Below, piece by piece: positions 11,992-40,093 of a stretch of 64,000 bases of DNA; the first letter of the stretch is position 1; the number at the start of each line of letters is the position of its first letter. The notes under the pieces are model-generated. The model made no database searches, was not told the DNA's origin, and worked only from the letters and a program-made list of their open reading frames with translations. The position numbers and the translations under genes were made by a program. Location of the stretch: the NCBI GenBank assembly GCA_963755915.1, contig CAVWLP010000002.1:2336001-2400000 (forward strand). Reading direction: 5' to 3'. Source of the stretch: an uncultured Phycisphaerales bacterium (GTDB lineage Bacteria; Planctomycetota; Phycisphaerae; Tepidisphaerales; Tepidisphaeraceae).

Positions 11992-12683
11992 TCGCAAACT
12001 CAAAAGTCATTTCCCGCATCGCTGCTCTAATTCTTTTGGGCGCTGTCGCTGTTCAGAATTACGCAGCCCGCCTCTCAGCGCCGGATTTCGAAGCCTATCG
12101 CGCCTCTATCCGAGAAGCTGCGGCACGAATTCCCGATCGCATCGGGCCGTGGATCGGCCACGACGTTCCCGTGCCGACGCGGGCACTCACCGTGCTCCAG
12201 CCCAATGTCATGATCAGCCGGGATTATTTGAATATTGAATCGGGGCTTCATGCGGGCGTTCTGTTCGTTCACTGTGCCGATGCGCATCACATGGTCGGAC
12301 ACTTTCCAGCCCGCTGCTTTCCCGCCGATGGCTGGCAGTTCGTGGGCAGCGGGCCCATCGATTGGCGGGCGGGGAACCTTCCCCTCGTCGGGACCGAATA
12401 CGAGTTTTTCATGCAGGAGATCGGGGAAGACGTCAGCGGCCAGCAGCGGATCATCGTCGATAATTGCCTGCTTCGCCCCGGCGGGCTGATCCTTCGCGAT
12501 ATGAACGGCGTCAGCGATTCCATCGTCGGCGCCACCGGCCAGGCCAGCGGCGTCGGCGAAATCCAGTTCTATTTTGATGCTTCAATTCCCAAGGCCCAGC
12601 GCGACAAAGCGATGACAGAATTATCTGCCGGCTATCGTCCGCTGATCGACGCGGTTCTTTCGGCGCCCAAAACCTCAAAATGA
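11988..12683 (+). CDS. Exosortase-associated EpsI-like periplasmic protein
   Basis: N-terminal TM, IPDRIGPWIG, ISRDY, GHFPARCFPADGW (HxPxxC..GW); overlaps the exosortase stop. Confidence 0.8.
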   Translation: MIANSKVISRIAALILLGAVAVQNYAARLSAPDFEAYRASIREAAARIPDRIGPWIGHDVPVPTRALTVLQPNVMISRDYLNIESGLHAGVLFVHCADAHHMVGHFPARCFPADGWQFVGSGPIDWRAGNLPLVGTEYEFFMQEIGEDVSGQQRIIVDNCLLRPGGLILRDMNGVSDSIVGATGQASGVGEIQFYFDASIPKAQRDKAMTELSAGYRPLIDAVLSAPKTSK

Positions 12684-12686
12684 TTT

Positions 12687-18922: not shown

Positions 18923-18935
18923 AACCGTCCTATCC

Positions 18936-20228: not shown

Positions 20229-21498
20229 AGGGCTCGCTCGCCATGCAAGCTTCACCGATCGTTTCACCGGAAGCTACCTTTTCCCCGCGCACCGGCCTCC
20301 TTCCGGCGATCGCCTGGTTGTTTCTCGGTGGACTGGTTATTCGCCTAGCGATCGCCTTATTTCTGGGTATCCACGCAAAATTGGAGTCCGACGAATTTGA
20401 ATACTACAGCGCGGCGGTCTCGGTGGCGCACGGAGATGGATATTGCCTCGTCCCGCAGCAATCCCCCGACGGTGTCCCTCATTTGACCGCATATCGAATG
20501 CCCGGCCCGGCCCTCATCATGGCCTTGGTTTTCAGAATGACGAACGCAAGCGTACCGGCCGCCCGTCTGAGTTCCGTCATTTTTGGAGCTGTCGCTGCGC
20601 CGTTGATGTTTCTCTTCGCCCGGCAGTTTAGCGGCAGCCTCCCCGCGCTGATTGCAGGCGCCGCTGTTGCAGTCCATACCGTGTGGAACTTCATGGCTCC
20701 CGCGATCGAATCCGAATCATATTTCATCCCCCTGCTGATCTTGGCTCTGTGGCTCACTGCCTGCTCGTGGCGGCGCAGGATGGAATCGCATTCCCGGCAG
20801 GACTCGCCTGGGGTGCCGCGATGCTCACGCGGCCCCATGCTCTCCCAATGCTCGTGCTCATTGTTCTGCTCGCGCTGGTCTCCCGCCGCTGGAAAATCGC
20901 CTGCCTCCATGTGGTCGCTTTTCTCGTCATGATCCTCCCCTGGACGGTCCGCAACTACATCGTTTTCCACCGTTTCGAGTCCCTGGAAACTTGCAGCGGA
21001 GAGACCCTCCTCGGGGCCAACAATCCATACGTACTCTCCAATCCAGCTCTCCACGGGATGTGGATCTCTCCCCTGGGGATTCCACAGTATCGCAGCCGCC
21101 TCAAATCTGTGCACGACGATTTCCAGCGATCCGAGCTCCAGCGCAGCATCGCATTGCAGTTTCTCCGCGGCCATCCAACCGAAATCCCCCGACTCGTCGT
21201 TTATAAACTCTGGAGATGGCTCACTCCCATCACCGGTTCCCGTGGCGCGGTCCGATGGCTTGTGCTGCTCTCCTACGGTTCGCTTTTGGCTTTGCTGGCG
21301 CTTGGATTACCCTTGGGGGTCTTCAAGCCCACCATCGAGTTGAAGTTGGCGCTTCTTTGCACCCTCGCATTAGCGGTCTCCACGATGGTTTACTGGGGAA
21401 ACCTCACCCGTGGTCGTATCCCCCTGGAATTCATCTGGCTCCCATGGGCGTGCGCCGCCGCCTGCCGGCTCGTGCAGCCCGCGAGGAAACCTTCATGA
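20225..21498 (+). CDS. Second GT-C (ArnT/PMT-like) membrane glycosyltransferase (frameshift near 20780)
   Basis: DEFEY, TAYRMPG, ESE, LTRP, PWTVRNY, GANNP. Confidence 0.72.
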
Positions 21499-22760
21499 GC
21501 GTCGCCATCGAGGTGGAAAACATCGGCAAGCGTTATCGCATTCGCCACGAGCGCGAAAGTCACAGTTCCTATCGCACTCTGCGCGACACCCTGACGGATA
21601 TCGCCAAAGCGCCGCTCCGCTATTGGACCCGCGAAGTCGAAAGCGAGAAGCGGGAGGACTTCTGGGCGCTCAAAGACGTGAATTTCAGCATTCAGCATGG
21701 CGAGGTCGTCGGAATCATCGGCCGCAATGGCGCGGGAAAATCCACGCTCCTTAAAATCCTCAGTCGCGTCACCAAGCCCACCTCCGGCCAGGTCATCCTG
21801 CGCGGCCGCGTCGGCAGCCTGCTGGAAGTCGGCACCGGCTTCCACCCCGAACTCAATGGCCGCGAAAACATCTTTCTCAATGGCTCCATCCTTGGCATGA
21901 CCCGCAGGGAAATCCAAAAGCGCTTCGACGCCATCGTCGATTTCTCCGGCGTTGAAAAATTCCTCGACACCCCCGTAAAGCGCTACTCCAGCGGTATGTA
22001 CGTCCGTCTCGCCTTTTCCGTCGCGGCTCATCTCAATCCGGAGATTCTCATCGTGGACGAAGTCCTCGCCGTGGGGGATGCGGAATTTCAAAGGAAATGT
22101 CTCGGCAAACTCAGCGAAGTCTCGCGCAGTGGGCGAACCATATTGCTAGTCAGCCATCAGATGCCGTCCATCGAAAAACTGTGCGACAGCGCGATCCTGC
22201 TTTCCGCCGGTGCAGTTGCCGAGTACGGCCCCACGTCGCAGGTCATCGCGAAATATCTCGCCATTTCGCAGAGAACCGCCAGTTCGTCTTACAAGGCGGC
22301 AGCCCCGGGAAAAGAATCGGCATATCTTCTCAGCGCGGAAACGCTGGACTCGGAGGGATTGCCTTGCGATACCCTTCGCTTCGGCGAACCGTTCTCTATT
22401 CGGATGCGCTGGCATCATAAGACGAGTCTGAACGGTGTCCTCTATGGCTTTCGTCTCTTTGACAGTCAGGAACGCGACGTCTTCCGAGTTAACACCCGAA
22501 GTCAGGAACATCTCGATTTGAATCGCCCCGGCGACCACTTTGTCACCACTCACTTCCCGGTCAATATTCTCCCGCCGGGGGACTACTTCGTTACGATCGC
22601 GGCCTGGCAACATGTGGGTGGAGGAGTCGTTCAGGCTCTGGAGCGATGCCTGAGAATTACAGTGGATTCTGCCCCGTTCTACTCCGACCACCGCTTCGAG
22701 GTCGCTGGGTCACCCGCTGCTGCCGTCCGGGCGATCTGGCGCGATGAAACCGGTTCCTGA
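21495..22760 (+). CDS. wzt: Polysaccharide ABC transporter ATPase with C-terminal Wzt domain
   Basis: GRNGAGKST, YSSGMYVRL, ILIVDEVLAVGD, plus a C-terminal beta domain. Confidence 0.93.
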   Translation: MSVAIEVENIGKRYRIRHERESHSSYRTLRDTLTDIAKAPLRYWTREVESEKREDFWALKDVNFSIQHGEVVGIIGRNGAGKSTLLKILSRVTKPTSGQVILRGRVGSLLEVGTGFHPELNGRENIFLNGSILGMTRREIQKRFDAIVDFSGVEKFLDTPVKRYSSGMYVRLAFSVAAHLNPEILIVDEVLAVGDAEFQRKCLGKLSEVSRSGRTILLVSHQMPSIEKLCDSAILLSAGAVAEYGPTSQVIAKYLAISQRTASSSYKAAAPGKESAYLLSAETLDSEGLPCDTLRFGEPFSIRMRWHHKTSLNGVLYGFRLFDSQERDVFRVNTRSQEHLDLNRPGDHFVTTHFPVNILPPGDYFVTIAAWQHVGGGVVQALERCLRITVDSAPFYSDHRFEVAGSPAAAVRAIWRDETGS

Positions 22761-25837: not shown

Positions 25838-25849
25838 ATTGATTCCCCG

Positions 25850-26801
25850 ATGGCAACCGTTTCAAACACGCGCACCGCAGAACGGGCAAATGAACCCCCG
25901 CGCATTTCGGTTGTTATTCCCAGCTACAACGGCGCGGCGTATTTGTCTGAGGCGATCGAAAGCTGCCTGCAACAGACGATGATCGATTTTGAGATCGTGA
26001 TCGTGGACGACGCCAGCCCCGATGATTGCGCAAATCGCCGAGCGATTTGCCCGCTCCGACGGCCGGATCCGGCTGATCCGCCGAGAAAAGAACGGCGGGG
26101 TCTCGGCCGCGTTCAATAGCGGCTTCGCCGTCGCGCGGGGCCGATTTTTCACGCGGCTGGCCCAGGACGATGTCTTTTATCCCGATGCCCTGGCGAAGCT
26201 CTGCGGATGCCTGGAAGCGAGTCCCGAAACAGGCCTGGTCTACGGCGGCTGCGAGGAGATCAACGAAGACGGCAGCCTGCGCGGCGCGGCAAGCGTCCCC
26301 GACCCGGAAACGGCGCTGCTCTTCGGCAATCGCCTGGGCCTCTGTGCCGCGTGGCGGCGAGAAATCTGGGAAAAGCTTGGCGGATTTAATCCGCATTTCG
26401 ATGCGGCCGAGGATTACGAATACTGGGTGCGCATCTGGAATCACTATCCGATCAAAAGCTGCGGGAGCGCACCACTGTTGCGTGCCCGCCGGCATGCGGA
26501 GATGGGATCGCTGCTTTATGCGGAGAGACAGGAACGGGCGACGCTTCGCGTCCTGCGCGAGTCGTTTCCAACGCGGATTACACCGCCGTGGCGGCGAAAG
26601 CTGGCCCAGCGGGCGGCGATTTCGCGGACGCTCTTTGGGGCGGCGACACAGTATCGCTGGAAAGGGCAGACGCGTCTGGCGCTGACGCGCGTGGTCGGGT
26701 CGCTGCTTGTCTGGCCGTTGCCGTACAAGCATAGAAGCAGCAGGACCTGGTTTCCGCGGATTCGATGCCTGCTTTCGCTGATGGTTTCAGCGGCGCGATG
26801 A
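25850..26801 (+). CDS. Glycosyltransferase family 2 (frameshift near 26030)
   Basis: SVVIPSYN, IVDDASPD, NGGVSAAFNSG, LAQDD, AEDYEYW. Confidence 0.88.
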
Positions 26802-26826: not shown

Positions 26827-27108
26827 ATGGAAGACAAGCTGCACGATACTTTGAGGCAAATGCTGGTGAATGATCTTTATGTGGAAATGCCGCCGGAGCA
26901 GATCGGGCTGGATGATGGGCTGCGGACGGTCGTCGGTCTGGATTCGGTTGGTTTCGTCGAAGTGCGCGTGCTTTGCGAGCGCCGGTTCGGCATTCAGATC
27001 AGCGATGACGACTATACGCCGGAGAATTTCAGCTCGATTCGCCGGCTGGCGAACCTGATCCAGCGGCTACAGGCGGCGCAGAAGTCGCCGGCGGGAAAGA
27101 GCGCGTGA
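26827..27108 (+). CDS. Acyl carrier protein (Cfa1-like)
   Basis: 93-aa acidic protein with GLDSVG phosphopantetheine site and PENF motif; GGAG RBS. Confidence 0.9.
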   Translation: MEDKLHDTLRQMLVNDLYVEMPPEQIGLDDGLRTVVGLDSVGFVEVRVLCERRFGIQISDDDYTPENFSSIRRLANLIQRLQAAQKSPAGKSA

Positions 27109-28199
27109 GAGTCGGCGTGAGCGGTATGGCGTGGACGACGCCGCTCGGCGACTCGCTGGAGGGCGTGTGGGAATCCCTGCTGGCGGGCAGGAGCGGGATT
27201 CGGCCCGTCGCGCACCAGGGGCGTTTGCGGAATGACCTGGCGGCGCCGGTTGCGGAGCCGGATTTGAGCGTACCGCCTGGTTCGCGGCTGCATCATATGG
27301 CGTGCAGCGCGATCGCGCGGGCGCTTCAGTCGGCGGGGAAGACGGCGAGCGATCCGACGGTTCAACTGGTCGTCGGGACGAGCCTGGGGACTTACCTGGA
27401 GGATCCGCCGGAGGCGCCGCTGTATGGGTGGATCGAAAAGGTGGCGGCGGAGTTGGGGTTGGCGTCGAAGCCGATCGGCGTGTCGACGGCTTGCTCTTCG
27501 GGGTCGGATGCGATTTTGCTGGGGGCGGAGTTGATTCGCAGCGGCGCCGCGTCGTGCTGCGTCTGCGGGGGGGCGGACGTGCTGACGTGGAGCAAAAGGA
27601 TCGGGCACTCAACGCTGGGGACTATGTCGCCGACGATGCTGCGGGCGTTTGATCGCCGGCATGATGGGACGCTGCTGGGCGAGGGGGCGGGGTTTGTGGT
27701 GCTGGAGGCGGATCCGGTTAAGTCGCTGGCGGTGCTCCGCGGGTGCGGGTCGGCGAACGACGGGACGGGGATGACGTCGGCGGATACTTCGGGGAAGTGT
27801 GCGCGGTTGGCCGTCGAAAGATCGCTGATGGACGCGGGACTATCGGCGGGGGAAGTGGGGCTGGTCAATGCGCACGGGTCGGGGACGCAGATGAATGATC
27901 TGACGGAGAAGAATGCGCTGGGTGAAGTGTTCGCGGGCTCGCGGCCGCTGGTGTTTGCGACGAAGGGGAATTTCGGGCACAGCCTGGGGGCGACGGGGGC
28001 GCTGGAGGCGATTGCGTTGGTGATGGCGATGAGAAGCGGGCGGGTGCCGCCGATTATTGGGCTGGAGGATCCGGATCCGGAGTTTGCGCTGCCGCTGGCG
28101 CGTGGCGGCGCCGTCGAGCATTCGGCTCGGTTTGGGTTGAGTTTGACACTGGGGTTTGGGGGGTATGACACGAGCCTGGTGTTTGAGGTGGTGCAATGA
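27105..28199 (+). CDS. Beta-ketoacyl-ACP synthase (type II KS, Cfa3-like)
   Basis: TACSSG, GEGAG, NAHGSGT..ND, NFGHSLGA, GFGG: Cys-His-His triad intact. Confidence 0.92.
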   Translation: MRVGVSGMAWTTPLGDSLEGVWESLLAGRSGIRPVAHQGRLRNDLAAPVAEPDLSVPPGSRLHHMACSAIARALQSAGKTASDPTVQLVVGTSLGTYLEDPPEAPLYGWIEKVAAELGLASKPIGVSTACSSGSDAILLGAELIRSGAASCCVCGGADVLTWSKRIGHSTLGTMSPTMLRAFDRRHDGTLLGEGAGFVVLEADPVKSLAVLRGCGSANDGTGMTSADTSGKCARLAVERSLMDAGLSAGEVGLVNAHGSGTQMNDLTEKNALGEVFAGSRPLVFATKGNFGHSLGATGALEAIALVMAMRSGRVPPIIGLEDPDPEFALPLARGGAVEHSARFGLSLTLGFGGYDTSLVFEVVQ

Positions 28200-28750
28200 T
28201 CGTGGTGGCGGCAAGAGGCGAAGCGAGTGAGCCGGTGATGAGCTGCTTTGCGGCGGCGGTTCGGAATGCCGTGAGGTATGCGGATCCGATTTCCTGGATG
28301 GGGGCGACGGCGGCGGCGATGGCGCTGAAGGAGCTGGGGGAGAAGATCGGGGCGATGCGGGATTCGATCGGGGTGATCGCGATGAGCAATGATGGGCCGG
28401 CGCAGGCGATCGCGGCGGTGGCGGAGGCGTCGGGGGCGGGGTTTTCGTCGCCACTGAAGTATCCGGCGGCGAATCCGGGGTCGCTGGCGGGGGTGACTTG
28501 CATTACGCAGGGGTTGCATGGACCGACGATGAATCTTGTTATGCCGCTGGAGGGGGCGATTGGGGTGGGTGTGGGGCTGGCGCGGGGGTGGGTGGAGAGA
28601 GGGGTTTGCCCGCTGGTGGTTTTGGTGGCGGCGCGGAGGGATCGGGCGAGGTGCCTGGTGGTGGGGAAGTCGGGGGGCGAGGCGCTGAAGGGGGGAGATG
28701 AGGTGTGGCTGGCGATGGGACCCGGAGGGGGCGGATCTGACAGAATCTGA
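28196..28750 (+). CDS. Small KS-N-terminal-like protein (Cfa4-like)
   Basis: 184 aa; YADP..W and SPLKYPAANPGSLAG..CI...GP; overlaps the KS stop; no KS catalytic motifs. Confidence 0.6.
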   Translation: MIVVAARGEASEPVMSCFAAAVRNAVRYADPISWMGATAAAMALKELGEKIGAMRDSIGVIAMSNDGPAQAIAAVAEASGAGFSSPLKYPAANPGSLAGVTCITQGLHGPTMNLVMPLEGAIGVGVGLARGWVERGVCPLVVLVAARRDRARCLVVGKSGGEALKGGDEVWLAMGPGGGGSDRI

Positions 28751-28797
28751 CAAAATCTGACACTTTTCCGATTTTTGTTATTATTTACTAACTTATT

Positions 28798-30210
28798 ATG
28801 CAAATGGTTGACGTACAAAGGGTTGCGGATTTTATGGGTGGGGTGACGGATGCGGACGAGACGGCGCCTGGGGCGGGAGCGTCGTTTTTGGAGATTGGCG
28901 AGGGGTGGAAACGGGCGGGGCTCGGGGCGGGGGATGTGGTGCTGGTTTGTCTGCCGAATGGGAAGATGCTGCTGGAACATTTTTTTGGGGTGATGTTGGC
29001 GGGAGGTGTGCCGGCGCTGGTGGGGCCGGGGACGCCGGGGGCGCGGGTGAAGGAGCTGGTAGGGGCGCTGGGGGCGAGGGCGGTGGTGTCGCTTAGGCCG
29101 ATGGCAGAAGGGGATTTGAGATTTGAGATTTCAGATTTGAGGGCGGAGAGAATTGGCGGGGCGAGGGTTTATTGGTTTTCGAAGGGGGATGGGCCGGCGG
29201 CGAAGGCGGGGGAAGTGATTTTGCTTACGTCGGGGACGAGCGGGTTTGCGAGCGGGTGTGTGCATGATTTTTCTTCGCTGATGCTTAATGCGCGGCGGCA
29301 TGCTGAATCGATTGGGCAGACAGCCGGTGATACGGTGCTGGTGAGTTTGCCGCTTTATTTTTCGTTTGCGCTGGTGGCGCAGGCGATGGGGTCGCTGGTG
29401 ACGGGGAATCGGCTGGTGATTGGGGGGCCGCCGTTTCATGTGCCTAGTTTTGTGAAGTCTATTGAGAAGTTTGGGGTGACGGTTTCGTCGCTGACGCCGG
29501 TGCTGGTGGGGTCGCTGCTGCAGAGTGGGGTGGAGATTCCGGCGCGGTTGCGCGTGCTGACGGTGGGGGGGGATGCGCTGGCTTCGGCGACGGTGGAGGA
29601 ATTGATTCGGAGGCGACCGGGCGGGGAGCTTTATCTGACGTATGGGCTGACGCAGGCGGGGCCGCGGGTTTCGACCCTGGCGGCGCACCGGGAACCGGCG
29701 GGGCGGTATGGGTCGGTGGGGGTGCCGCTGGAGGGGACGGGGGTGAGGCTGGAAGAAGTCGAGAGGAGCGGGGGGATGGAGCAGCTTTTTGTTTCTTCGG
29801 AGACGGTGATGAAGAGGAGGGTTGGGGCTTGTGATGGGGGGGTAAATAGAGATTTGAAATTTGAGATTTCAGATTTAGGGAGGCGGGAAGTGGCCACCGG
29901 GGATGTTTTCACGCGGGATGAGGAGGGATATTTGTACTTCCGGGGGCGGATGTCGGATTACATTGTTCGGCATGGAGAGAAGGTCTGCCTGGCGGCGGTG
30001 CGGCGGGTGGCGATGGGGTTTGCCAATGTGGTGCGGGCGACGACGCCGGTTAGCAGACATGAGTATGGGGAGGATTTTGATCTGGTGCTGGATATCAGTG
30101 GAGCAGAGGAGGATTATCATGTGCTGCTGCGCGGATGGCTGAAGAAGTCGGAGATGCCGAGGGAAGTGAGAGTGGTGAAGAAGGCGATGAGTGAGGTGGG
30201 ATATAAATGA
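28798..30210 (+). CDS. AMP-dependent acyl-CoA/acyl-ACP ligase (Cfa5-like)
   Basis: LTSGTSG, YGLTQAG, ATGD, YFRGR adenylation motifs. Confidence 0.88.
   Translation: MQMVDVQRVADFMGGVTDADETAPGAGASFLEIGEGWKRAGLGAGDVVLVCLPNGKMLLEHFFGVMLAGGVPALVGPGTPGARVKELVGALGARAVVSLRPMAEGDLRFEISDLRAERIGGARVYWFSKGDGPAAKAGEVILLTSGTSGFASGCVHDFSSLMLNARRHAESIGQTAGDTVLVSLPLYFSFALVAQAMGSLVTGNRLVIGGPPFHVPSFVKSIEKFGVTVSSLTPVLVGSLLQSGVEIPARLRVLTVGGDALASATVEELIRRRPGGELYLTYGLTQAGPRVSTLAAHREPAGRYGSVGVPLEGTGVRLEEVERSGGMEQLFVSSETVMKRRVGACDGGVNRDLKFEISDLGRREVATGDVFTRDEEGYLYFRGRMSDYIVRHGEKVCLAAVRRVAMGFANVVRATTPVSRHEYGEDFDLVLDISGAEEDYHVLLRGWLKKSEMPREVRVVKKAMSEVGYK
29113..29140 (+). repeat. 4x7-bp tandem repeat (GATTTGA) in-frame in the acyl-CoA ligase
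   Basis: gatttga gatttga gatttca gatttga; second copy at 29851..29878. Confidence 0.85.
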
Positions 30211-30293
30211 ATGCCGAATGCCAAATGCCGAATGGGAAGGGCGGAAATTCGAAATTCGAATGACGAAAGAGTGACATTTGCGAGTGAAATGAA

Positions 30294-31114
30294 ATGACCG
30301 ACAGCAGGGCGTATTCCAAGGATGAGTTTGCGGCGGGTGAGGCGGTAGAGAAGCCGCGCGCACGTCGGAATTGGCATAAGTATCTGGCGGAATCGGAGGG
30401 GAGTTTTGCGCGGGCGGTGCGGGGGGTTTATCGGGGGGTGAGGACTTTTTCGTTGCCGGCGCCGCGGGTGATTGTGCGGCCGATGGCGGTGGGGATCGAG
30501 GGAGTGCGCGGCGCTTACTATCAGCTTCTGCGGATATTTATTTGTGAGCCATATTTCAAGGCGCACTGGCGCGGTATGGGAAGAATCTGCGGGCGGATTG
30601 TTATTTGCACTGGTTTGATGGGAAGGGGGACATTATTTGCGGGGATGGGGTGAGGGTGGATGGGAAGTGCGCGTTTTTGTTTGGGGCGCGTTTTTCGGAG
30701 AGGCCGGTGCTCGAGTTTGGGGATAACTCGGGGTGCGGGCATGGGTGCCGGTTTGTGGTGGGGAAGAGGATTTCAATCGGGCGGGATACGGTGATCTCGG
30801 CTGAGACGATCATCATGGATTCGAACGGGCATCGGACGGATTTTGCGTCGCGGATGTTGAAGGAGCCGCCGAGGGATGAGGAAGTGCGGCCGGTGATTAT
30901 TGGGAATGGGGTGTGGATCGGGACGCGGTGCATGATTTTTCCGGGGGTGAAGATCGGGGATGGGAGCGTGGTGGCGGCGGGGTCGGTGGTGAGGTCGCAT
31001 GTGCCGGCGTATACGGTTGTGGCGGGGAATCCGGCGCACGTGGTGTTCAGGTTGAAGAAGGAGGAGAAAATGCCCATTGCCGATCGCCAATTGCCGAATG
31101 GGAATGTGTCATGA
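30294..31114 (+). CDS. Hexapeptide-repeat acyltransferase (frameshift near 30570)
   Basis: IMDSNGH, PVIIGNGVWIG, VVAAGSVV, VAGNPA. Confidence 0.85.
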
Positions 31115-32217
31115 GCGAAACGCGTGCGAAAATAGGATTGCAGGAGCTCGAGGCCGAGATTCAGACCGGTCGGAAGTTGGCGACGCAGTCGGTGCGGGAG
31201 TTTCTCTCGACGGTGGCGCTGGTTTCGGAGGTGAATCTGGCGCAGGTGCTGATCGCGCTGTGGGACAGCGGGTTTTATGAATATGTCAGAAAGCATGAGC
31301 GTGTGGAGCCGGCGCGGTGCTGCGAGGAACTGGGGCTGGAGCCATCGATATTCAATGAGTTGATTAATTACCTGGTGGGGCGGGGGATTTTTGAGCCGGT
31401 TGATGGGGGGCTTCAGTTAAGTGAGAAGGGGCGGCCGTATTGGAATTATGTGACGCGCGGAGTGCTGACGGCGCATGTGGGGGGATATAACCAACTCCTG
31501 GTGCATCTGGGGCCGCTGGTTCGGGGGGAGATGAAGCTGGACGATCGGCGGTTGGATCGGGATGGGAGGCTGGTGGGGGTGGGGGCGAATTATACGCTGC
31601 TGGGGAGCGGGACGGTGCCGTGGGTGGCGCGGGTGATCAATGAGCTGGGGGGGAAATTTGTGCTGGATGTGGGATGCGGGGGGGGATTGTTTCTGGTGCA
31701 TTTGGCGCTGAAATGGCCGGGTGGCGGGGGAGTGGGGATCGATATGGATGGCGGGGCGATCGCGGCGGCGAAGAGGCATGCGGAGGATTATGGGGTGAGC
31801 GATCGGGTGAAGTTTAGGCAGGCGAAGCTTTCGCCCGAGCCGATCGATCTGCCGAGGGAGACGATTGAGAAGGTGGATGTGGTGACGGCGATGTATGTGC
31901 TGCATGAATTTGGGGGGATGGGTGGGGTGGAGATGATTTCGAAGATGATCGGGTGGATTAAGAAGCAGTTTCCGGGGAGGAAACTGATTCTGGCGGAGGG
32001 GACGCGGGCGGATCCGGTGGCGATGTGCAAGAATCCACCGGCGACGTATGCGCAGCTCGATTATTCATTTTTTCATCCGCTGTCGAGGCAGGGGCCGCTG
32101 CGGACGCCGGAGGAGTGGAAGGGGATTATTGAGAATGCGGGGGCGAAGCTGGTGGAGAGGATCGGGGGGTTTGGGACGATTCCGGGGTGGATATCGTTGT
32201 TTGTGATTGAGCTGTAA
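31111..32217 (+). CDS. SAM-dependent methyltransferase with N-terminal helix-turn-helix dimerisation domain
   Basis: VLDVGCGGG, GIDMD, MYVLHE, FFHPLSRQG; ATGA overlap. Confidence 0.85.
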   Translation: MSETRAKIGLQELEAEIQTGRKLATQSVREFLSTVALVSEVNLAQVLIALWDSGFYEYVRKHERVEPARCCEELGLEPSIFNELINYLVGRGIFEPVDGGLQLSEKGRPYWNYVTRGVLTAHVGGYNQLLVHLGPLVRGEMKLDDRRLDRDGRLVGVGANYTLLGSGTVPWVARVINELGGKFVLDVGCGGGLFLVHLALKWPGGGGVGIDMDGGAIAAAKRHAEDYGVSDRVKFRQAKLSPEPIDLPRETIEKVDVVTAMYVLHEFGGMGGVEMISKMIGWIKKQFPGRKLILAEGTRADPVAMCKNPPATYAQLDYSFFHPLSRQGPLRTPEEWKGIIENAGAKLVERIGGFGTIPGWISLFVIEL

Positions 32218-32256
32218 AGACAGGTGTGAAGGTAAGAAGGTGAGAAGGTGTGAAGG

Positions 32257-32981
32257 ATGTCTAAGACGGCGGTGATTACGGGAGCTTCGGGGGGGATTGG
32301 GCGCGCGGTGTGTAAGACGCTGGCGGGGATGGGGTTCGGGGTTGTGATGGTGGGGAGGGATCGGGAGAAATTGGAGCGGGCGCGGAGGGAGATGGAGATT
32401 TCCGAAGGCGCGGCGAGGATCTTTGTTTGTGATGTGACGGATCGTGGGGCGGTGAAGGGGATGGTGGAGGAGGTGGGACAGGTTGATGTGCTGGTGTGTG
32501 CGGCGGGGATCAATATTGCGCAGAGGAGTTTGCGGTCGCTGGATCCGGGGGAGTGGGACCGGGTGATCGATGTCAATCTGAACGGGGCGTTTAATGTGAT
32601 TCATTTTGTGCTGCCGGGGATGCGGGCGCGGGGGGATGGGATCATCATTCAGATTGGATCGGTTTCGGGGTTGCGGGCGAATGTGCTGGCGGGGCCGGCG
32701 TATTCGGCGTCGAAGTTTGCGCAGATGGCGCTGGGGGTTTGTATTGGGAGGGAGGAGCGGGGGAGGGGAATACGATCTACGGTGATTTGTCCGGGGGAAG
32801 TGAATACGCCGTTTTTGGATCAGCGGGCGGGAAGGCCGGGGGGGACGGATGGGGCTGGGCGGAGGGAGCTGATTTTGCAGCCGGAGGATGTGGCGGCGGC
32901 GGTGAAGTTTGTGGTGGAGCTGCCGGCGCGGCGCATGTGCCGGAGCTGGTGATTAAGCCTACGATTGATGATTTTTCATGA
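32257..32981 (+). CDS. SDR family oxidoreductase (frameshift near the 3' end)
   Basis: TGASGGIG, CAAG, YSASK, PGEVNT; C-terminus HVPELVIKP in an alternative frame. Confidence 0.9.
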
Positions 32982-33058
32982 TGCGACTTGGAAGGGCGAA
33001 GACACCTGCCGACTAAAGTCGGCAGACCGGGTGGGTCATTCATAGGGATTAGGTGGCG

Positions 33059-33896
33059 ATGCGGGCGACGCAGATAGCGAAACGATTTGAGCGGGCGATA
33101 AAGCGTCGTGGAATACTGGGCGCGCTTGCGGTGGCGCCGCGCGGGATGGGCTTCGCTTCGGCCGATCCTGCCCGGATCGGCGCGGCGCGGCAAAAAGCAG
33201 CTTGAGATGGAGCAGCAGTGGGACCTGGAACATGGAGTGGAAACGGAGGGTGTCGTTCATCCTGCAAATCTGGATGCATGCACTGAGAATTGGGTGCATG
33301 GGGTTCAGTATCAGCCGAGTGCTCCGGTGGAATTTCATCGGGTGATTTCGTCGGTGTCACTGGAGTTCGAGCGATTTATTTTCGTGGATGTGGGCTCGGG
33401 GAAGGGGCGCGGACTGGTACTGGCCGCCCAGTATCCGTTTTGCAAAATCATCGGGGTGGAGTTTTCCAGGGGACTTCATGCGGTGGCGCAACGGAATGTC
33501 ATCCGGGCGGGGTTGAACGGGCGCGTAGAGCTGGTTTGTGCGGATATTCTGGATTGGCCGCTGCCGTTCGTTAGAGGGTCACACTTGGAGGGACGCGCTG
33601 CTCTTGATGGGTCGACGCTGCGCCGCGGAGTCGCGGGCAAACGGGGGGAGGAAGTTGCTGATGCGTTGGGTCTGGCGATTTATCTTTATAACCCGTTCGA
33701 TATGGTGGTGATGCGGGGGTTTGTCGCGAGGGTGGAGCGATCGCTGCGGGAGAATTGGCGGCCGACGTGGGTTTTCTATTCGAATCCAAGGGAGGCGCGG
33801 GCGTGGGATGAATCTTCGTCGTTCCGGCGGGCGGCGGAGGGACGGGATGGAGATGGGTACGTGGTTTGGCGGAGCGTGGAGCAGGAGAAGAAATGA
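33059..33896 (+). CDS. Class I SAM-dependent methyltransferase (frameshift near 33140; internal ~35-aa insertion)
   Basis: YQPS, FVDVGSGKGR, IGVEFS, YLYNPF, YSNP. Confidence 0.82.
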
Positions 33897-35091
33897 GCGG
33901 TTTGCCAGTGAGCGTTGGAACGGAGGTGAAGGAGGGGGATCGCGGCGCGGAGCCTACGCGAGAGAAGAGCGCGGCAATTCGGCGCTACGCGGGTGCGGAA
34001 TGTTTGGAATTGATCGCCAATTGCCGTGAAGAATGGATGAAGGCGCTGAGAAGGGGTGCGGGGGGTGCGGTGGACTTGCACGCGGATTTATTAGATTCCG
34101 CATGGGGGGAACGGGCGGTGGTTTTATTCAGCGAGGCGGATGATGAGGGGGAAGGCGCGCGGTTCGCTGCTTTGGCGGGCCAGCCGATCATTTTGCGAAT
34201 GCTGGCGAAACCAAGGGTGCGGGTGCGCCTGTCCGGCCATCGGCTGATCGGCAGCGAGATCGTGGGATGCGCGACGGCGCGGGAGCGCCGTCCGTTCATC
34301 GAGGGGATGTTCGATCTCGTGGCTGGGCGGGAGACCGAATGCGTTATGGTGGACGACCTGGAGGTTGGCTCGGCGATGCAGGAGGCGCTGGCGTCGCAGG
34401 CCGGATCGGATCGGCGCATCATGCTGCATCAGCCGGCGGCATCGCAAGCGAGATGGTGGATTGAGTTTGGGGGAGATCCCGGGCGATATTGGGAGAAATT
34501 TTCGAAAAAAACCCGGGAGACGCTGCGAAGCAAGGTGCGGAAACTGGGGCACGAACTGGTGAAATTCACATCGGTTGACGAGGCGCTGGAATTCTTGAAG
34601 TTGGCGGAAGAGATTTGCGCACGAGCTGGCAGAGCAAGCAGATGGGCTTGCGCATCTCGGATAGCGCGGGATCACGGGAATATTGGCGGAAGGTGGCGGG
34701 AATCGGAGCGTTTCGATCTTATGTTCTGCGGCAGGGGGAGCGACCGATTGCGTTCATGGTTGGACGGCAGTGGGAAGGGAAATTTTATTATGAGGAGGCG
34801 GGATACGATCTGGCGTTGGCCAAGCAATCGCCGGGGACGGTGCTGCAGGTGCGAGTGATTGAGGATTTGATCGAACACGACACGCCGCGTTTATTCGATT
34901 TCAGCTTTGGCGATGGAGAGCACAAACGGTTTTTCGGGAATCGACAGACGAGCAGCGCGGCGGTTTTGGTGCTGCGGAGGTCGTGGAGAAACCTGGCGAT
35001 TTCGGGACTTCAGCGGGCCAGTGCCTCGGCGGTGGCGAGTCTTCGTTCATCGAGGTTGTACAAGCGACTGCGCCGGGCGCAGCGGGCGTGA
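33893..35091 (+). CDS. CelD/BcsL-type GNAT acyltransferase (frameshift near 34620)
   Basis: FSKKTR, SWQ, GYD...SPGTVL, FDFSFGDGEHKRFFGN. Confidence 0.82.
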
Positions 35092-36079: not shown

Positions 36080-36114
36080 GATTGCCGAATGCCGATTGCC
36101 AAATGCCGAATGAA
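36080..36114 (+). repeat. 5x7-bp tandem repeat (GAATGCC-type)
   Basis: gattgcc gaatgcc gattgcc aaatgcc gaatgaa; related arrays at 30209 and 31069. Confidence 0.85.
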
Positions 36115-36192
36115 AGGCGCGTAGGGCGTGCCTTTTGTTCGGCATTTGTCGTTTGGGGGGAAAGGGAACTGAGGAGCGTTGGCGGATTTTGC

Positions 36193-36220: not shown

Positions 36221-36294
36221 AGTAACCGTTTACTCTGAAGATTTCCGAGCGTTTTAGAGGTTGCCGAGCAATTTGTTTGCGGAGGACTCGGTCA

Positions 36295-39252
36295 ATGAAA
36301 TCGTTGAAGCGTTGCCTGGCGGCGGCGGTGTGGGGAGTTCCTGCGTTTGGCTGGGGGCAGACGGTAATAAACGGGGACAACATGGCGCTGCTATCGAGCG
36401 GCGCGGCCAGCGGGAGCGGCTGGACATTGAGCAGCGATGGGTATGTGGGGAGCTACATCACCCTGGGGACCGCGGAACCGGTGACGTTTACACTGAATGC
36501 AAGCGGTGTTGCGTCGAACGGGCTGAATCCGGACATGTCGCTGTCGATCGCGGACAGCACGGATTCGTTCAGCGTGACGCCGGGGAGCTCGAATAATTAT
36601 ACGTATACGACGCCCACGCTGCCGGCGGGGACGTATCTGGTGCGGACGCAACTGGACAACCAGAATGCGACGCAGACGCCGAGTTTGACGGTGAATTCGA
36701 TGACGGTTTCGGGGGCGGGGATCTCGGTTTTGCAGGGGTCGGCGAACAACAGCAGCACCAATGCGATGGCGGCGGCGACGACATATGCGCAGAATTTCCG
36801 GTCGGGTTCGGCGACGATTTCGCTGACGAATGGAAATGGGCTGCAGCTTGGGGCGGGGACACAGGTGCAGGTGAAGCTGATCAGCAATGCGTTTACGTTT
36901 GCGGGGGCGGTGTATGGGTTCGATCCGTACTATGAGCCGGCGCAGTGGTTAAACGGAGGGGTTTCCACGCCGGTGAGCTCGGCGCCGAACACGACGGAGG
37001 AGATCAGTTATCAGAACGCGATTCTGTCGAATTTCAACGCGATTGTGCCGTCGAATGCGGGGAAATGGGGGAACAACGAGAACACGCAGGGAAGCGTGAA
37101 CATGAATACGGTTGACGCGATGACGGATTTCGCGGTGCAGCATGGGCTGGCGGTGCGGATGCATAACGGTTTTTGGGGGGCGACGGAGCAGCCGGGGTTC
37201 GTCAATACCTGGTTCAGCGCGATCGACAGCGGGTCACCGAACGCGGCGGCAGATCTCGCGTCCCTCAAGAGCGCGATGACGAGCCGGGTGAATTATTATT
37301 TGTCGGGAAACAACGGGGCGCTGGGGACGCCGCGGACGGACAGTTACCAGGAAGTGGATCTTTTTAACGAGCTTTGGCATACGCAGGCGGATTCGGACAA
37401 TTACCTCGGGGTGCTGGGGTATCAGGGGGTGGCGAATTATTACGCGCAAGCGGCGACGGATATTAAGAATGCGGGGGCGAATACGCGGCTGTACACGAAT
37501 GAGTACAACGTGCTTCAGTTTTCGCCGGCGACGATAAGCAGCAGCGGCGCGGCGAGCGGGTCGGACCCATATGCGAACTGGTATTTGAAGGGGATTCAGA
37601 CGATTCAGAACGATGGGGGGCCGATTTCGGGGGTGGGGATGGAACTGTACGTCGATACGAACGACGCGGTGAACGCGGCGCAGATGGAAGATGCGATGCA
37701 GAATTTGTCGGTGGACAAGACGGCCAGCGGAGCGGCGGCGGCGTTGTCGCTGACGGAATTCGGGGTTGGGACGGGGGATTCACCGTCGAACAGCACGTAC
37801 GATACGGATTTGACGACGGCGCTGACGATGATTTACGGGACGCCGCAGGCGACGACGTTTGGGTATTGGGCGGGAATTGGGGGACCGAACGACAACACTC
37901 CCTACTCGCTTTACAACAGCAGCTATCAGCTCACGTCGGCGGGGCAGACGTTTGAGAACTGGATGAGCCAATGGCAGACGAACGATACGCTGACGACGAA
38001 TTCCAGCGGGCAGGTTTCGTTTAACGGGACGTATGGCCTGTACGACGTGATCGTGGACGGAGTGACGTATGAGCTGGACCTGGTGAAGGGGACGACGAAT
38101 TACGGGATGATGACGCCAATCAGCGGGGCGACGTGGACTGGGGGTGGCGCGGATAATAATTGGAATACGGCTGGGAACTGGGGGAGCACGGCGCTGACGG
38201 CGAATGCGCCGCTGGTTTTTGCGGGGAATGCGAATCTTTCGCCGAACAATAACTCGGCGGCGAATACGGCTTATTCGGGGATTACGTTCAATCCGGGGGC
38301 GGCAGCGTTTTCGATCGGGGGGAATGCGATTGAACTCTCTGGGAACATCGTGAACAACAGCAGCAATTCGCAGGCGATCAACCTGAACATCGCGCTGGAA
38401 GCGAACGCGACGCTGAATACGGCAAGCGGGAACCTGGCGATCGGGGGGAATATCAGCGGGGCGTTTTCGATCACCAAAACCGGGGCAAATATCCTGACGC
38501 TTTCGGGGACGAACAGTTACAGCGGTGCGACGACGGTTAGCACGGGCGGGCTGGTGGTGGGGTCGGCGGGGGCGCTGCCGGCGATGACGAGCCTGGCGAT
38601 TGGGAACGCGACGTCGGTGCAGCTAAGCACCGGCGTCGGGCAGGTGACGGTGGCGGGGCTGTCGATCGCGGGGACAGGGGTGCTGGATATCACGAACAAT
38701 CACATGATCATCACCTACGGGTCGAGCGATCCGATCGGGACGATCGAGGGGTATCTTGCCAGCGGGTTTAACAATGGGGAGTGGAATGGGCCGGGGATTA
38801 TTTCTTCGGCGGCGCAGACGCTGAATAATGGGCTGGAGTATGGGGTCGGATTCGCGGACGGGGCGGATGGGGTGGTGGCGGGGTTGAGTTCGGGGCAGAT
38901 TGAATTGAAATACACCCTGCTGGGAGATGCGAATCTGGATGGGACGGTGAACGGGTCGGACTTCAGCATCCTGGCGTCGAACTTTGGAACCGGGGCGACG
39001 AACTGGGACCAGGGGAATTTTCTGTTCAGCAGCTCAGTGAATGGGTCGGATTTCTCGGCGCTGGCGGCAAACTTTGGGCAGGGAGACAACGGGGCGGATA
39101 ATGAGGTGACGCCGGCGGACGTGGCGGCGCTGGATGCGTTTGCGGCGGCGAATGGATTGCTGGCGGATGTTCCGGAGCCGGGGTGCGCGGCGCTGGCGGG
39201 GATTGGGGTGCTAATCGCGGCGCGACGGCGTGTGCGGCGCGTGGGGAAATAA
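36295..39252 (+). CDS. GH10 glycoside hydrolase with autotransporter-associated beta-strand repeat, dockerin-like region and PEP-CTERM signal
   Basis: Signal peptide; NAGKW, RMHNGFW, DLFNE (acid/base), YTNEYN, LTEFG (nucleophile); TKTGANILTLSGTNSYSGAT; GDANLDGTVNGSDF; VPEP+TM+RRR. Confidence 0.88.
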   Translation: MKSLKRCLAAAVWGVPAFGWGQTVINGDNMALLSSGAASGSGWTLSSDGYVGSYITLGTAEPVTFTLNASGVASNGLNPDMSLSIADSTDSFSVTPGSSNNYTYTTPTLPAGTYLVRTQLDNQNATQTPSLTVNSMTVSGAGISVLQGSANNSSTNAMAAATTYAQNFRSGSATISLTNGNGLQLGAGTQVQVKLISNAFTFAGAVYGFDPYYEPAQWLNGGVSTPVSSAPNTTEEISYQNAILSNFNAIVPSNAGKWGNNENTQGSVNMNTVDAMTDFAVQHGLAVRMHNGFWGATEQPGFVNTWFSAIDSGSPNAAADLASLKSAMTSRVNYYLSGNNGALGTPRTDSYQEVDLFNELWHTQADSDNYLGVLGYQGVANYYAQAATDIKNAGANTRLYTNEYNVLQFSPATISSSGAASGSDPYANWYLKGIQTIQNDGGPISGVGMELYVDTNDAVNAAQMEDAMQNLSVDKTASGAAAALSLTEFGVGTGDSPSNSTYDTDLTTALTMIYGTPQATTFGYWAGIGGPNDNTPYSLYNSSYQLTSAGQTFENWMSQWQTNDTLTTNSSGQVSFNGTYGLYDVIVDGVTYELDLVKGTTNYGMMTPISGATWTGGGADNNWNTAGNWGSTALTANAPLVFAGNANLSPNNNSAANTAYSGITFNPGAAAFSIGGNAIELSGNIVNNSSNSQAINLNIALEANATLNTASGNLAIGGNISGAFSITKTGANILTLSGTNSYSGATTVSTGGLVVGSAGALPAMTSLAIGNATSVQLSTGVGQVTVAGLSIAGTGVLDITNNHMIITYGSSDPIGTIEGYLASGFNNGEWNGPGIISSAAQTLNNGLEYGVGFADGADGVVAGLSSGQIELKYTLLGDANLDGTVNGSDFSILASNFGTGATNWDQGNFLFSSSVNGSDFSALAANFGQGDNGADNEVTPADVAALDAFAAANGLLADVPEPGCAALAGIGVLIAARRRVRRVGK

Positions 39253-39301: not shown

Positions 39302-39949
39302 CTAAATCGCAGTTGAGCCGTCAATCAGGCGACGGTTTTGCGCCCGGCGACCGAGCAGAGCTGCGCTGGTCAATCCCATAATAGCGAGAGTGGTGGGCTC
39401 CGGGACGTACGGAGTGGTGATGGTGTTGACCACTTTTTGGTTGCCGGTTTCGGTGTCCTCGGCACCAGAGGCGCCGTAGGTGTTGACGCCTGTATTGAGG
39501 TCGGTGGTCCAGAGGGTCAGAATTCCGCTTGCGCCTGCGCCGGGTTCGGAGTAGCTGGAGCCGTTGTAGGCGAAGCTTAGATTCTCAATGCTGGGATTGT
39601 CTACGTGTCCCAACGAGGCCATCTGGGTATTGAGAGCGGGATCGATGGCATTTCCGGTTAGTTGCTGGGTGAGATTGAGGTTGGCGGTACCGAAGCCAGT
39701 GATTCCGGTGAGGGACCATGCGTCGGGGCCAGTAGTGATAAGGTCGGGGAAGTCGTAGATGACAAATCCCTGGCCTGTATTGACGGTCCCGTTACTGGCG
39801 GCGACGAATGATATTGAATACTGATATTCGCCCGTCGCCGGGTTGGATGAGGAGTTGCCGATACTGAAGGTTGCCCTTGCGGCTTGGGTGCCGAAGAGCA
39901 AGACAGCGACAGTGAGACTGCCCAAAAGCGATAGATTCTTTCCGATCAT
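39302..39949 (-). CDS. PEP-CTERM surface protein
   Basis: GGAGGGG RBS, signal peptide ending ARA, Ser/Thr/Asn/Gly-rich body, VPEPTTLAIMGLTSAALLGRR. Confidence 0.88.
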   Translation of the reverse strand: MIGKNLSLLGSLTVAVLLFGTQAARATFSIGNSSSNPATGEYQYSISFVAASNGTVNTGQGFVIYDFPDLITTGPDAWSLTGITGFGTANLNLTQQLTGNAIDPALNTQMASLGHVDNPSIENLSFAYNGSSYSEPGAGASGILTLWTTDLNTGVNTYGASGAEDTETGNQKVVNTITTPYVPEPTTLAIMGLTSAALLGRRAQNRRLIDGSTAI

Positions 39950-40093
39950 AAGGCCCCTCCGGGGTTGCCGAATGTTTGTGCCAAAAAGCGACATACAATC
40001 CTTTAAACGCGACAGATAAGTTGCAAAAAAAATCACTTCCGAACAAAACTTCAACTGATTATTCGACCACGACTGCCTTCGCCTGAAGAGGAA

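Follow-up and report, generated by a model that had tools for sequence, protein, structure and literature searches.

A probable ring-forming cassette of the AmcBFGH type with a conserved seven-gene layout in a polysaccharide and exosortase locus of an uncultured Phycisphaerales bacterium, and its possible role in glycan acylation

What would relatives of the cispentacin and coronafacic acid enzymes be making inside a bacterial polysaccharide locus? This question is raised by a stretch of 64,000 nucleotides from an uncultured Phycisphaerales bacterium of the family Tepidisphaeraceae (assembly GCA_963755915.1, contig CAVWLP010000002.1; G000:C2:2336001-2400000 in our numbering, hereafter the window), taken from an assembly of 6.63 Mb in 3 contigs that is 81% complete and 8% contaminated. 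Here, an acyl carrier protein (ACP), a ketosynthase (KS), a small non-catalytic KS-like partner termed the cyclization factor (CYF) and an adenylate-forming ligase are encoded one after another and are followed by a left-handed beta-helix (LbH) acyltransferase, a methyltransferase (MT) and a short-chain dehydrogenase/reductase (SDR). The four core genes very probably form an AmcB/F/G/H (Cfa1/3/4/5) cassette with cispentacin-type core chemistry, its substrate and product being assigned by homology. What the cassette serves is considered below; the best explanation as a whole, to which we give an even chance, combines a cassette of the minimal type, an extension by MT, SDR and LbH, and release by the LbH protein onto the polysaccharide of the locus.

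The chemistry of this family of enzymes was established for cispentacin by Hibi et al. in 2023 (PMC10698177). According to the part of that paper drawn on here, AmcH loads only 2-oxoglutarate onto AmcB, AmcF and AmcG add one C2 unit and cyclise the chain to 3-oxocyclopent-1-ene-1,2-dicarboxyl-ACP, AmcE is a decarboxylase, and AmcB/E/F/G/H correspond to Cfa1-5. The same part of the paper catalogues four-gene amcBFGH clusters as the “minimal type”, with products that are mostly or entirely unassigned.

All four core proteins of the window are recognized by the family-specific curated models of this system, with scores of 105-502 bits, each above its cut-off. The ACP matches NF058660 (AmcB) at 115.6 bits (cut-off 80) and Pfam PP-binding at 39.6 bits, and carries an LDS motif with the phosphopantetheine serine, Ser40, an LDS motif being likewise described for AmcB (PMC10698177). 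The KS scores 483.6 bits with NF058662 (AmcF, cut-off 325) but falls below the cut-off of the FabF model (190.1 versus 493.75 bits), and its catalytic triad Cys130/His257/His292 is intact and invariant in 13 of 13 aligned homologues. Similarly, the ligase scores 502.4 bits with NF058661 (AmcH, cut-off 370) and stays below the cut-offs of both the best long-chain fatty-acid ligase model (85.6 versus 476 bits) and the model of exosortase-A-associated ligases, TIGR03098 (69.4 versus 592.35 bits). The CYF passes NF058659 (AmcG) with 105.5 bits (cut-off 80), belongs to no Pfam family, contains not a single cysteine or histidine that is invariant in a 49-sequence alignment, and is 35% identical (E 1e-23) to Streptomyces proteins named “coronafacic acid synthetase” by NCBI; the motifs YADP..W and SPL..ANPG.LAG..CI...GP make up the conserved core of its family. 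Its AlphaFold2 (AF2) model (pLDDT 89.7) finds its best PDB folds in FabF and in KS partners or chain-length factors (CLFs) (7f28_C, 6qsp_B, 1tqy_B, 6kxd_B; TM scores of 0.60-0.68 normalised to the query, E down to 2.7e-7). A KS-CYF heterodimer is predicted with a score of 0.97 in three of three runs, the best of three controls reaching 0.00, with a partner pLDDT of 90 and at least 95% of the contacts common to the runs; the mark applied to such scores is reached by 58 of 80 solved and by 2 of 110 mismatched pairs. Given these core scores and the failure of the AmcG model to reach its cut-off in any of 14 control genomes, the resemblance goes far beyond chance, and on model scores the four proteins are true members of the AmcB/F/G/H, that is Cfa1/3/4/5, system.

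Much of a preliminary description made from the DNA alone thus stands: it had reported the run of ACP, KS, 184-residue KS-like protein and ligase, which is indeed present, co-oriented and tightly packed, it had quoted the CYF motifs given above, and it had likened the four proteins to Cfa1/3/4/5. The possibility it had raised against itself, that the proteins would group with generic FabF-type synthases and fatty acyl ligases, does not agree with the low scores against those models. One point has to be corrected: Cfa2, there called a dehydratase, corresponds to the decarboxylase AmcE (PMC10698177, in the part drawn on here).

Neither Cfa2 nor a type I polyketide synthase (PKS) had been seen in the window, and within the 81% of the genome that is assembled this extends to the genome as a whole: for AmcE/Cfa2 the best score is 31.6 bits (cut-off 140), for the aminotransferase AmcC 80.9 bits (cut-off 600), and the KS-AT linker of type I PKSs, PF16197, has no match. 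The B, F, G and H homologues are contiguous, and neither of the other Amc members tested (AmcE and AmcC) rises above its cut-off in this genome. Since AmcE, AmcC and the type I PKS marker were not found in it, the cassette would belong to the minimal type of Hibi et al. 2023, with 3-oxocyclopent-1-ene-1,2-dicarboxyl-ACP as the expected intermediate.

The cassette does not stand alone. All genes from 26.8 to 36.1 kb lie on the + strand, co-oriented and tightly packed, with 4-nt overlaps between the ACP and KS genes, the KS and CYF genes (ATGA) and the LbH and MT genes (ATGA), and with 26 nt between the end of the GT2 glycosyltransferase gene and the start of the ACP gene. The hairpin at 36102-36146 is the first strong terminator-like one, none comparable being found between 26.8 and 36.1 kb, and likely ends the transcription unit. 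Neighbour genes in related loci were counted by tblastn with the window proteins, and the LbH count covered the 12 loci with enough sequence 3' of the ligase gene (the window, the same-genus genome G001, L028-L035, L040 and L049). The LbH gene comes next after the ligase gene in 11 of these, directly in ten and after one inserted open reading frame (ORF) in L034. Among the nine loci with long flanks, an MT homologue occurs in seven (not in L033 and L035) and an SDR homologue in eight (not in L033). The four core genes together with those for LbH, MT and SDR form a coherent, conserved seven-gene unit in metagenome-assembled genomes (MAGs) of Planctomycetota, Acidobacteriota, Verrucomicrobiota and Lentisphaerota. 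The conserved unit ends there: the second methyltransferase has a homologue only in G001, and the GNAT is not conserved with the cassette outside the genus. The genes that the preliminary description placed downstream are all present, their order being LbH, MT, SDR, MT and GNAT rather than with the two methyltransferases side by side.

Related loci also differ in accessory genes. An enzyme dependent on thiamine diphosphate (TPP) and resembling acetolactate synthase and 2-keto-acid decarboxylases such as 5-guanidino-2-oxopentanoate decarboxylase is encoded in L029, L031, L040 and L047, and B12-radical-SAM (S-adenosylmethionine) methylases resembling PhpK/HpnR are encoded in L032, L033 and L048. 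These two alternative accessory genes suggest sub-variants of the ring product.

In the window assembly, the LbH gene is split near 30568 and the GNAT gene near 34616, each by a one-base frameshift. Contigs from soil metagenomes supply the missing bases: an extra C after 30568 in one contig of run X2 (depth 3), another C after 34616 in a single contig from each of the runs X1, X2 and X5, an extra G after 32929 in runs X1 and X3, which moves the SDR stop from 32952 to 32981, and an extra CG after 33137 in runs X1 and X5, which alters the 5' end of the second methyltransferase gene. With these bases, single ORFs of 273 (LbH), 241 (SDR) and 408 (GNAT) residues result. Soil contigs of several runs also diverge in the spacer between the CYF and ligase genes (loose ends at 28734-28775). 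Given an assembly in 3 contigs, its 81% completeness and the four indels relative to the soil contigs, the split genes look like the product of an indel-prone long-read assembly rather than pseudogenes; decay was considered and rejected on the ground that short-read-type soil contigs carry the missing bases. Other genes split in the window are those for GT2 (25850-26801), a PMT_2-like protein (18807-21498), an ATP-dependent DNA ligase (46720-48350) and Lhr (48442-50927).

The AmcG model exceeds its cut-off in 2 of 61 related genomes (the window genome, G000, and G001) and in 1 of 401 genomes of a phylum sample, which held no further carrier; this is a result for the sample and not absence from the phylum. 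The CYF family as a whole is small, comprising 314 clusters at E <=1e-3 among 1.84 billion representatives, some of them KS-CYF fusions, and a FastTree phylogeny of 164 members places the window protein in a 72-row clade (support 88) separate from the half of the tree in which the cluster of Streptomyces “coronafacic acid synthetase” proteins is found. Searching with the CYF alignment yielded 8 loci in species genomes and a further 14 in metagenomes (L039 and L044 being duplicates of L029 and L032); the genome loci are from MAGs of Tepidisphaeraceae, Thermoguttaceae, Phycisphaerales, Planctomycetales, two Acidobacteriota, one Verrucomicrobiota and one Lentisphaerota. For a housekeeping M50 protease of the window organism, the best matches with a name are likewise MAGs of Tepidisphaeraceae (72% and 67%), as would be expected of what is probably a soil planctomycete of this family. 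A tblastn search of the PLSDB plasmids with the CYF returned one record, from Kitasatospora (31%), and no match on a plasmid of the P. syringae type. Elsewhere in the window genome, a 360-residue KS-like ORF (G000:C2:3972471-3972653; locus L002, ORF 1096-2178, - strand) gives a weak AmcG match of 25.5 bits; as its match to the ketoacyl-synt N-domain is only partial, it was rejected as a second cassette and is taken as a different KS-like protein. Its counterparts in the genus mostly match weakly and below the cut-off as well: 11 of the 12 other genomes give a match at E <=1e-3, G001 being the only one above the cut-off.

The surroundings of the cassette recur as well. With the window and G001 counted as one, polysaccharide or exosortase clusters hold the cassette in six of the eight independent long loci, and in other phyla too, so that the linkage, whose absence elsewhere had been named in advance as evidence against a glycan connection, is conserved. 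The proposed search for Cfa4-like genes beside exosortase or glycan genes was also productive (Table 1): L030 carries exosortase, EpsI and TPR genes, and L031 an XrtA/PEP-CTERM glycosyltransferase gene. Several neighbours are homologous to those of the window, including the TuaH-like (60%), WecB (63%) and serine-acetyltransferase (SAT)-like (62%) proteins of L035 and the exosortase (52%), EpsI (46%) and TPR (34-44% identity) proteins beside the cassette of L030. The short locus L043 has a gene for a DltB-like MBOAT directly before the ACP gene. The protein encoded at 16894-17853 of the window has no Pfam or NCBIfam family and shows the motifs HLHHD, HGNWAL and CYADFT; its homologues in G001, L029, L030 and L040 (40-59% identity in the three non-genus loci) travel with the cassette and the glycan locus in Planctomycetota and Acidobacteriota. 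Weak leads connect it with CE4-type polysaccharide deacetylases (Atlas score 0.82; Foldseek E 7e-5), the deacetylase fold matches being a lead only since the AF2 model is poor (pLDDT 54.8, from a 4-sequence alignment). If the protein de-N-acetylates a sugar, it could create the acceptor.

A candidate for the link between ring and glycan is the LbH protein. Its nearest NCBIfam models are of the WbbJ/WcaF types, its nearest solved relatives are maltose, galactoside and polysialic acid O-acetyltransferases, and it has a conserved N-terminal extension of ~85 residues. A search for longer LbH-containing proteins returned eight at E <=1e-20: fusions of adenylation domain, peptidyl carrier protein (PCP) and LbH (P0325, 53%; P0326, partial, 51%), of LbH, PCP, a class II aminoacyl-tRNA synthetase-like domain and GNAT (P0327 and P0328, 49%), and of MaoC, SDR and LbH (P0324, 60%), a ligase-LbH read-through in L030 (P0329), and more distant fusions of GT2 and LbH (P0330 and P0331, 38-39%). 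These fusions with carrier and adenylation domains and with GT2 argue that members of the LbH subfamily act on substrates tethered to a carrier and, among more remote relatives, in concert with glycosyltransferases. Across the related loci examined, the cassette has no conserved thioesterase partner. The MT, in turn, has its best PDB matches in 2-ketoarginine MT (8r4z, 3e-16) and MppJ (2e-11), both of which we take to be C3-methylases of alpha-keto acids.

Taken together, these observations suggest the following pathway. If the cassette works like its reconstituted homologues from cispentacin biosynthesis, the ligase would adenylate 2-oxoglutarate and load it onto the ACP, and the KS-CYF heterodimer would add one malonyl-derived C2 unit and close a five-membered ring, leaving 3-oxocyclopent-1-ene-1,2-dicarboxyl-S-ACP on the carrier. 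The expected cassette substrate being an alpha-keto acid and the MT relatives alpha-keto-acid methylases, the most likely role of the MT is to place a methyl group on C3 of the 2-oxoglutarate unit, where it would become a ring methyl; the FabG-like SDR most likely reduces the ring ketone, ketoreduction being the natural guess for a ketone beta to the thioester. With no thioesterase conserved and with AmcC, AmcE and the type I PKS marker not found, the LbH protein is proposed to carry out release: recognizing the acid on the ACP through the pantetheine arm, it would transfer it as an ester to a sugar hydroxyl in the polysaccharide produced by the surrounding exosortase/Wzm-Wzt locus. The outcome would be an acidic, ring-shaped acyl decoration with a free carboxylate, functionally like the succinylation of exopolysaccharides. 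Glycan acylation via the LbH protein, to which gene context and domain fusions point, falls just short of an even chance in our judgement. More tentative still is the statement in its full breadth, that soil Planctomycetota, Acidobacteriota and Verrucomicrobiota esterify exosortase-associated exopolysaccharides or PEP-CTERM protein glycans with a methylated cyclopentene or cyclopentanol dicarboxylate made from 2-oxoglutarate and off-loaded by a carrier-dependent LbH enzyme. The earlier proposal of reduction, methylation and transfer to polysaccharide or PEP-CTERM glycoproteins is plausible, and the comparative data supply a candidate for the transferase.

A number of observations weigh against this pathway. 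The nearest solved relatives of the LbH protein use acetyl-CoA, and for that reason it could merely acetylate a hydroxyl; likewise, its carrier fusions fit tailoring, with the cargo as acceptor, as well as off-loading, with the cargo as donor. The best NCBIfam match of the MT, 2-ketoarginine methyltransferase, reaches 110.5 bits against a cut-off of 425, and the substrates of both MT and SDR are guesses from family resemblance. The predicted KS-CYF pairing may owe its score to likeness to solved KS-CLF complexes. L035 has neither LbH nor MT, and in one divergent soil contig of run X5 the 3' end of the ligase gene appears to be followed, after 30 other letters, by the 5' end of the SDR gene (30232-32222), as in a relative that, like L035, lacks LbH and MT; this junction is weak, its flank being 24 nt on one side. 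As regards the setting, L032 and L033, two of the eight independent long loci, have no glycan genes in their flanks; four of the related loci come from the phylum of the window organism and are not fully independent; and within the genus the whole locus is common to the window genome and G001 only, a Wzt orthologue (72%) being found in G001 alone and only paralogues of <=64% identity in the 11 other genomes. The window lacks a linked MBOAT gene, the nearest of four in the genome lying ~125 kb from the cassette and ~89 kb past the window end. Finally, codon composition switches exactly at the ACP gene: in + strand genes at 1-26 kb, the share of G at third codon positions (G3) is 0.22-0.32 and that of C (C3) 0.26-0.53, G3 being no higher than C3 in most, and from the ACP gene to ~54 kb G3 is 0.50-0.69 and C3 0.06-0.23, housekeeping genes included, with a 2-kb GC skew of up to +0.46. 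The same boundary is found in G001, and KS homologues in ten other loci are not G3-biased. Because of this boundary, the cassette and the glycan genes 5' of it may have different histories. A replication origin or replichore pattern was rejected as the source of the skew, which is patchy genome-wide.

Several of these points are shared with the alternative that survives best, though we think it rather unlikely, namely that the seven-gene unit makes a free, diffusible cyclopentene dicarboxylate, methylated, reduced and possibly O-acetylated, which would serve as a signal, chelator or antimetabolite. The LbH protein would then be a tailoring acetyltransferase, as its acetyl-CoA-dependent relatives would have it, an unlinked hydrolase would release the product, and the glycan neighbourhood would reflect co-regulation or hitch-hiking in variable islands of surface and secondary metabolism, in keeping with the composition boundary at the ACP gene. 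All characterised products of the family are small molecules or building blocks (cispentacin, coronafacic acid and FR900452; PMC10698177, in the part drawn on here), and the two loci without glycan genes, L032 and L033, carry the B12-radical-SAM methylases, L033 also an MFS transporter. A diffusible product accounts less readily for the location of six of eight independent long loci inside glycan clusters with homologous partner genes, for the DltB-like MBOAT adjoining the ACP gene in L031 and L043 and for the fusion of LbH relatives to GT2, and neither a thioesterase nor an exporter is conserved with the cassette.

An improbable variant keeps the surface destination and changes the acceptor: the acyl group would be attached either to a membrane lipid or, in the course of exosortase processing, to a PEP-CTERM protein or the glycan on it. 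Exosortase loci use carrier-type acylation for a purpose that is unexplained, and NCBIfam has a family of “exosortase A system-associated” acyl-CoA ligases (TIGR03098), to which, however, the window ligase does not belong (see its score above). Two PEP-CTERM proteins are encoded directly downstream of the cassette, exosortase, EpsI and TPR genes lie beside it in the window, G001 and L030, and L031 has a fatty acyl-AMP ligase beside its MBOAT; yet an exosortase is found within the fetched flank in only three of the nine long loci, and the lineage of the LbH protein (WbbJ/WcaF/maltose O-acetyltransferase types) points to sugar hydroxyls. That these are ordinary fatty-acid or aryl-polyene KS/CLF genes with a fatty acyl ligase, or a decayed, frameshifted cassette, can hardly be right: the KS does have generic KS domains and the LbH and GNAT genes are frameshifted in the window, but the family-specific models are passed while those for FabF and fatty-acid ligases are failed by wide margins, the AmcG model exceeds its cut-off in 0 of 14 control genomes, 2 of 61 related genomes and 1 of 401 in the phylum sample, soil contigs restore the bases at the frameshift sites, and the frame breaks of G001 lie at other positions.

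The features of the window and the neighbours in related loci are collected in Table 1. Further 5' neighbours in the window comprise genes for GT4s, WecB, an SAT-like LbH protein, a GT2, and Wzy-like and tyrosine-kinase-like proteins. At 22000-26000, a stretch with a G+C content of 0.535-0.544 against ~0.60, containing a methyltransferase gene and two ORFs without family assignment, is missing from the syntenic locus of G001. At 45680-52758, genes for a metallo-beta-lactamase-fold protein, an ATP-dependent DNA ligase, an Lhr-type helicase with DEAD_assoc and a calcineurin-like phosphoesterase form a run that looks like a DNA-repair cluster.

Table 1. Features of the window (positions within the 64,000 nucleotides) and neighbours of the cassette in related loci
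Feature	Position	Strand	Basis or remark
Exosortase (11269-11991), EpsI/DUF3485 protein and 1386-aa TPR (PrsT-like) protein	11269..16847	+	
Conserved protein with HLHHD and HGNWAL motifs, possibly CE4-like	16894..17853	+	no Pfam family
Wzm/Wzt ABC glycan exporter, PMT_2-like fragments between	17993..22760	+	
GT2 glycosyltransferase, split ORF, directly 5' of the ACP gene	25850..26801	+	
ACP, AmcB/Cfa1 type, 93 aa	26827..27108	+	NF058660, Pfam PP-binding
KS, AmcF/Cfa3 type, 364 aa	27105..28199	+	NF058662
CYF, AmcG/Cfa4 type, 184-aa non-catalytic KS-like partner	28196..28750	+	NF058659
AT-rich spacer with promoter-like site at 28757-28784	28751..28797	+	10/12 matches; site counts not above shuffles
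Putative adenylate-forming 2-oxoglutaryl-ACP ligase, AmcH/Cfa5 type, 470 aa	28798..30210	+	NF058661
LbH (hexapeptide) acyltransferase	30294..31114	+	Pfam Hexapep; split near 30568 in window
SAM-dependent MT, alpha-keto-acid beta-C-methyltransferase lineage, 368 aa from ATG 31111	31111..32217	+	NCBIfam and PDB matches
FabG-like SDR	32257..32952 in window (stop 32981 with extra soil-contig G)	+	adh_short 159 bits, KR domain, FabG-type NCBIfam matches
Second class I methyltransferase	33108..33896	+	Methyltransf_25/11
Acetyltransf_6 (FemAB/CelD/BcsL-type) GNAT, split in assembly	33866..35091	+	PF13480, 60.1 bits on 3' part
Secreted protein, 325 aa, N-terminal signal-like segment	35098..36075	+	no Pfam or NCBIfam family
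Terminator-like hairpin, 20-bp stem	36102..36146	+	
GH10 and PATR repeat protein with C-terminal PEP-CTERM sorting signal (exosortase substrate)	36277..39252	+	PF07589, 21.1 bits, cut-off 20.7
Second PEP-CTERM ORF, convergent	39302..40054	-	PF07589, 26.9 bits, cut-off 20.7
Members of the 16894-17853 family in related loci	L029:5466-6578; L040:7465-8652; L030:4852-5829		
L029 glycan neighbours: two GT4, WecB			
L030 glycan neighbours: polysaccharide deacetylase, GT4, GT2, Wzx; then exosortase, EpsI/DUF3485, TPR			
L031 glycan neighbours: XrtA/PEP-CTERM glycosyltransferase, PEP-CTERM-type ATPase, GT4			TIGR03013, 434 bits, cut-off 393 (glycosyltransferase)
L031 acylation-type neighbours: fatty acyl-AMP ligase, SGNH-like protein, DltB-like MBOAT directly before ACP gene, GDSL protein			
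L035 neighbours: tyrosine kinase, TPR, Wzy, Wzx, GT4s, oxidoreductase, epimerase, WecB			
L040 neighbours: GFO/IDH/MocA (sugar-nucleotide-type) oxidoreductase, NAD-epimerase			

How the KS-CYF machinery works has been understood only since 2023, and clusters of the minimal type have no known products. The locus and its relatives define a seven-gene variant of such clusters that includes a plausible enzyme for release, recurs among polysaccharide and exosortase genes, and is carried by soil phyla that are abundant but poorly cultured. The preliminary description called the pathway undescribed, which does not hold for the cassette, already catalogued as the minimal type in the part of PMC10698177 drawn on here, and does hold, as far as our literature searches go, for the rest: no publication was found that links the KS-CYF machinery to polysaccharide or exosortase loci or describes the LbH/MT/SDR extension, nor any after Hibi et al. 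on AmcF/AmcG/Cfa4 or on cispentacin or coronafacic acid together with exosortase or exopolysaccharide. Among the terms looked up, the 2006 PEP-CTERM paper has no mention of acyl carrier or acyl-CoA ligase, and polyketide, ketosynthase and acyl-carrier terms were not found in the epsSMASH preprint. If the glycan reading is true, the ring acid would add a chemically new class to the substituents of exopolysaccharides, with effects on matrix charge, metal binding and flocculation, and a bacterial polysaccharide would for the first time be seen to bear an acyl group of polyketide type; LbH acyltransferases would prove able to off-load PKS carrier proteins, a way of release new to type II PKS-like systems, and the long-unexplained acylation genes of exosortase systems would gain a testable function. 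Should the product not reach a glycan, the cassette nonetheless points to a small-molecule family yet to be explored.

Among known systems, the closest is cispentacin (amipurimycin) biosynthesis by AmcB-H of Streptomyces (PMC10698177, as far as drawn on here), with which the window shares an ACP, KS, CYF and ligase that pass the Amc models, the same KS-CYF pairing and, as expected product, an identical first ring intermediate (2-ACP). It differs in several ways: its CYF falls on another main branch of the family tree, AmcE and AmcC were not found in the genome (no search was aimed at AmcD), and the cassette lies among polysaccharide genes, with an LbH protein, an MT of the alpha-keto-acid type and an SDR as partners. 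The minimal amcBFGH clusters of the FR900452 producer Streptomyces sp. B9173 and of Agrobacterium/Burkholderia, as given in the same part of the paper (PMC10698177), likewise have the core four only, with 2-ACP as the branch point; unlike them, the window has LbH, MT and SDR as partners and a glycan/exosortase context. The phyla named there for the minimal type are Proteobacteria, Actinomyces, Firmicutes and Ignavibacteriae, and the supplementary lists may include loci of the Planctomycetes-Verrucomicrobia-Chlamydiae (PVC) group and of Acidobacteriota (PMC10698177). The coronafacic acid clusters of Pseudomonas syringae and Streptomyces scabies (Cfa1-Cfa5) have a homologous ACP, KS, Cfa4 and Cfa5, whereas the window genome has neither a Cfa2 homologue nor the type I PKS marker of Cfa6/7 (no search was aimed at Cfl). 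On the side of polymer decoration, the Dlt system (DltA-DltC-DltB-DltD) D-alanylates teichoic acids and AlgI/J/F/X acetylates alginate. The MBOAT beside the ACP gene in L031 and L043, with the SGNH and GDSL proteins of L031, is by analogy the Dlt/Alg logic of carrier-fed polymer acylation, in which a carrier is charged by an adenylating enzyme and its cargo ends as a decoration on an extracellular polymer; in the window, which has no linked MBOAT, the cargo would be a PKS-built ring acid and a soluble or membrane-associated LbH protein would be used instead. LpxA and LpxD are acyl-ACP-dependent LbH acyltransferases, and the succinylation of succinoglycan is an acidic O-acyl decoration. Although the window LbH protein belongs to the WbbJ/WcaF/maltose O-acetyltransferase branch and scores only 30 bits with the LpxD model, the reaction proposed for it would combine the features of these precedents: an LbH fold, a pantetheine-linked donor, a sugar acceptor and a half-ester with a free carboxylate.

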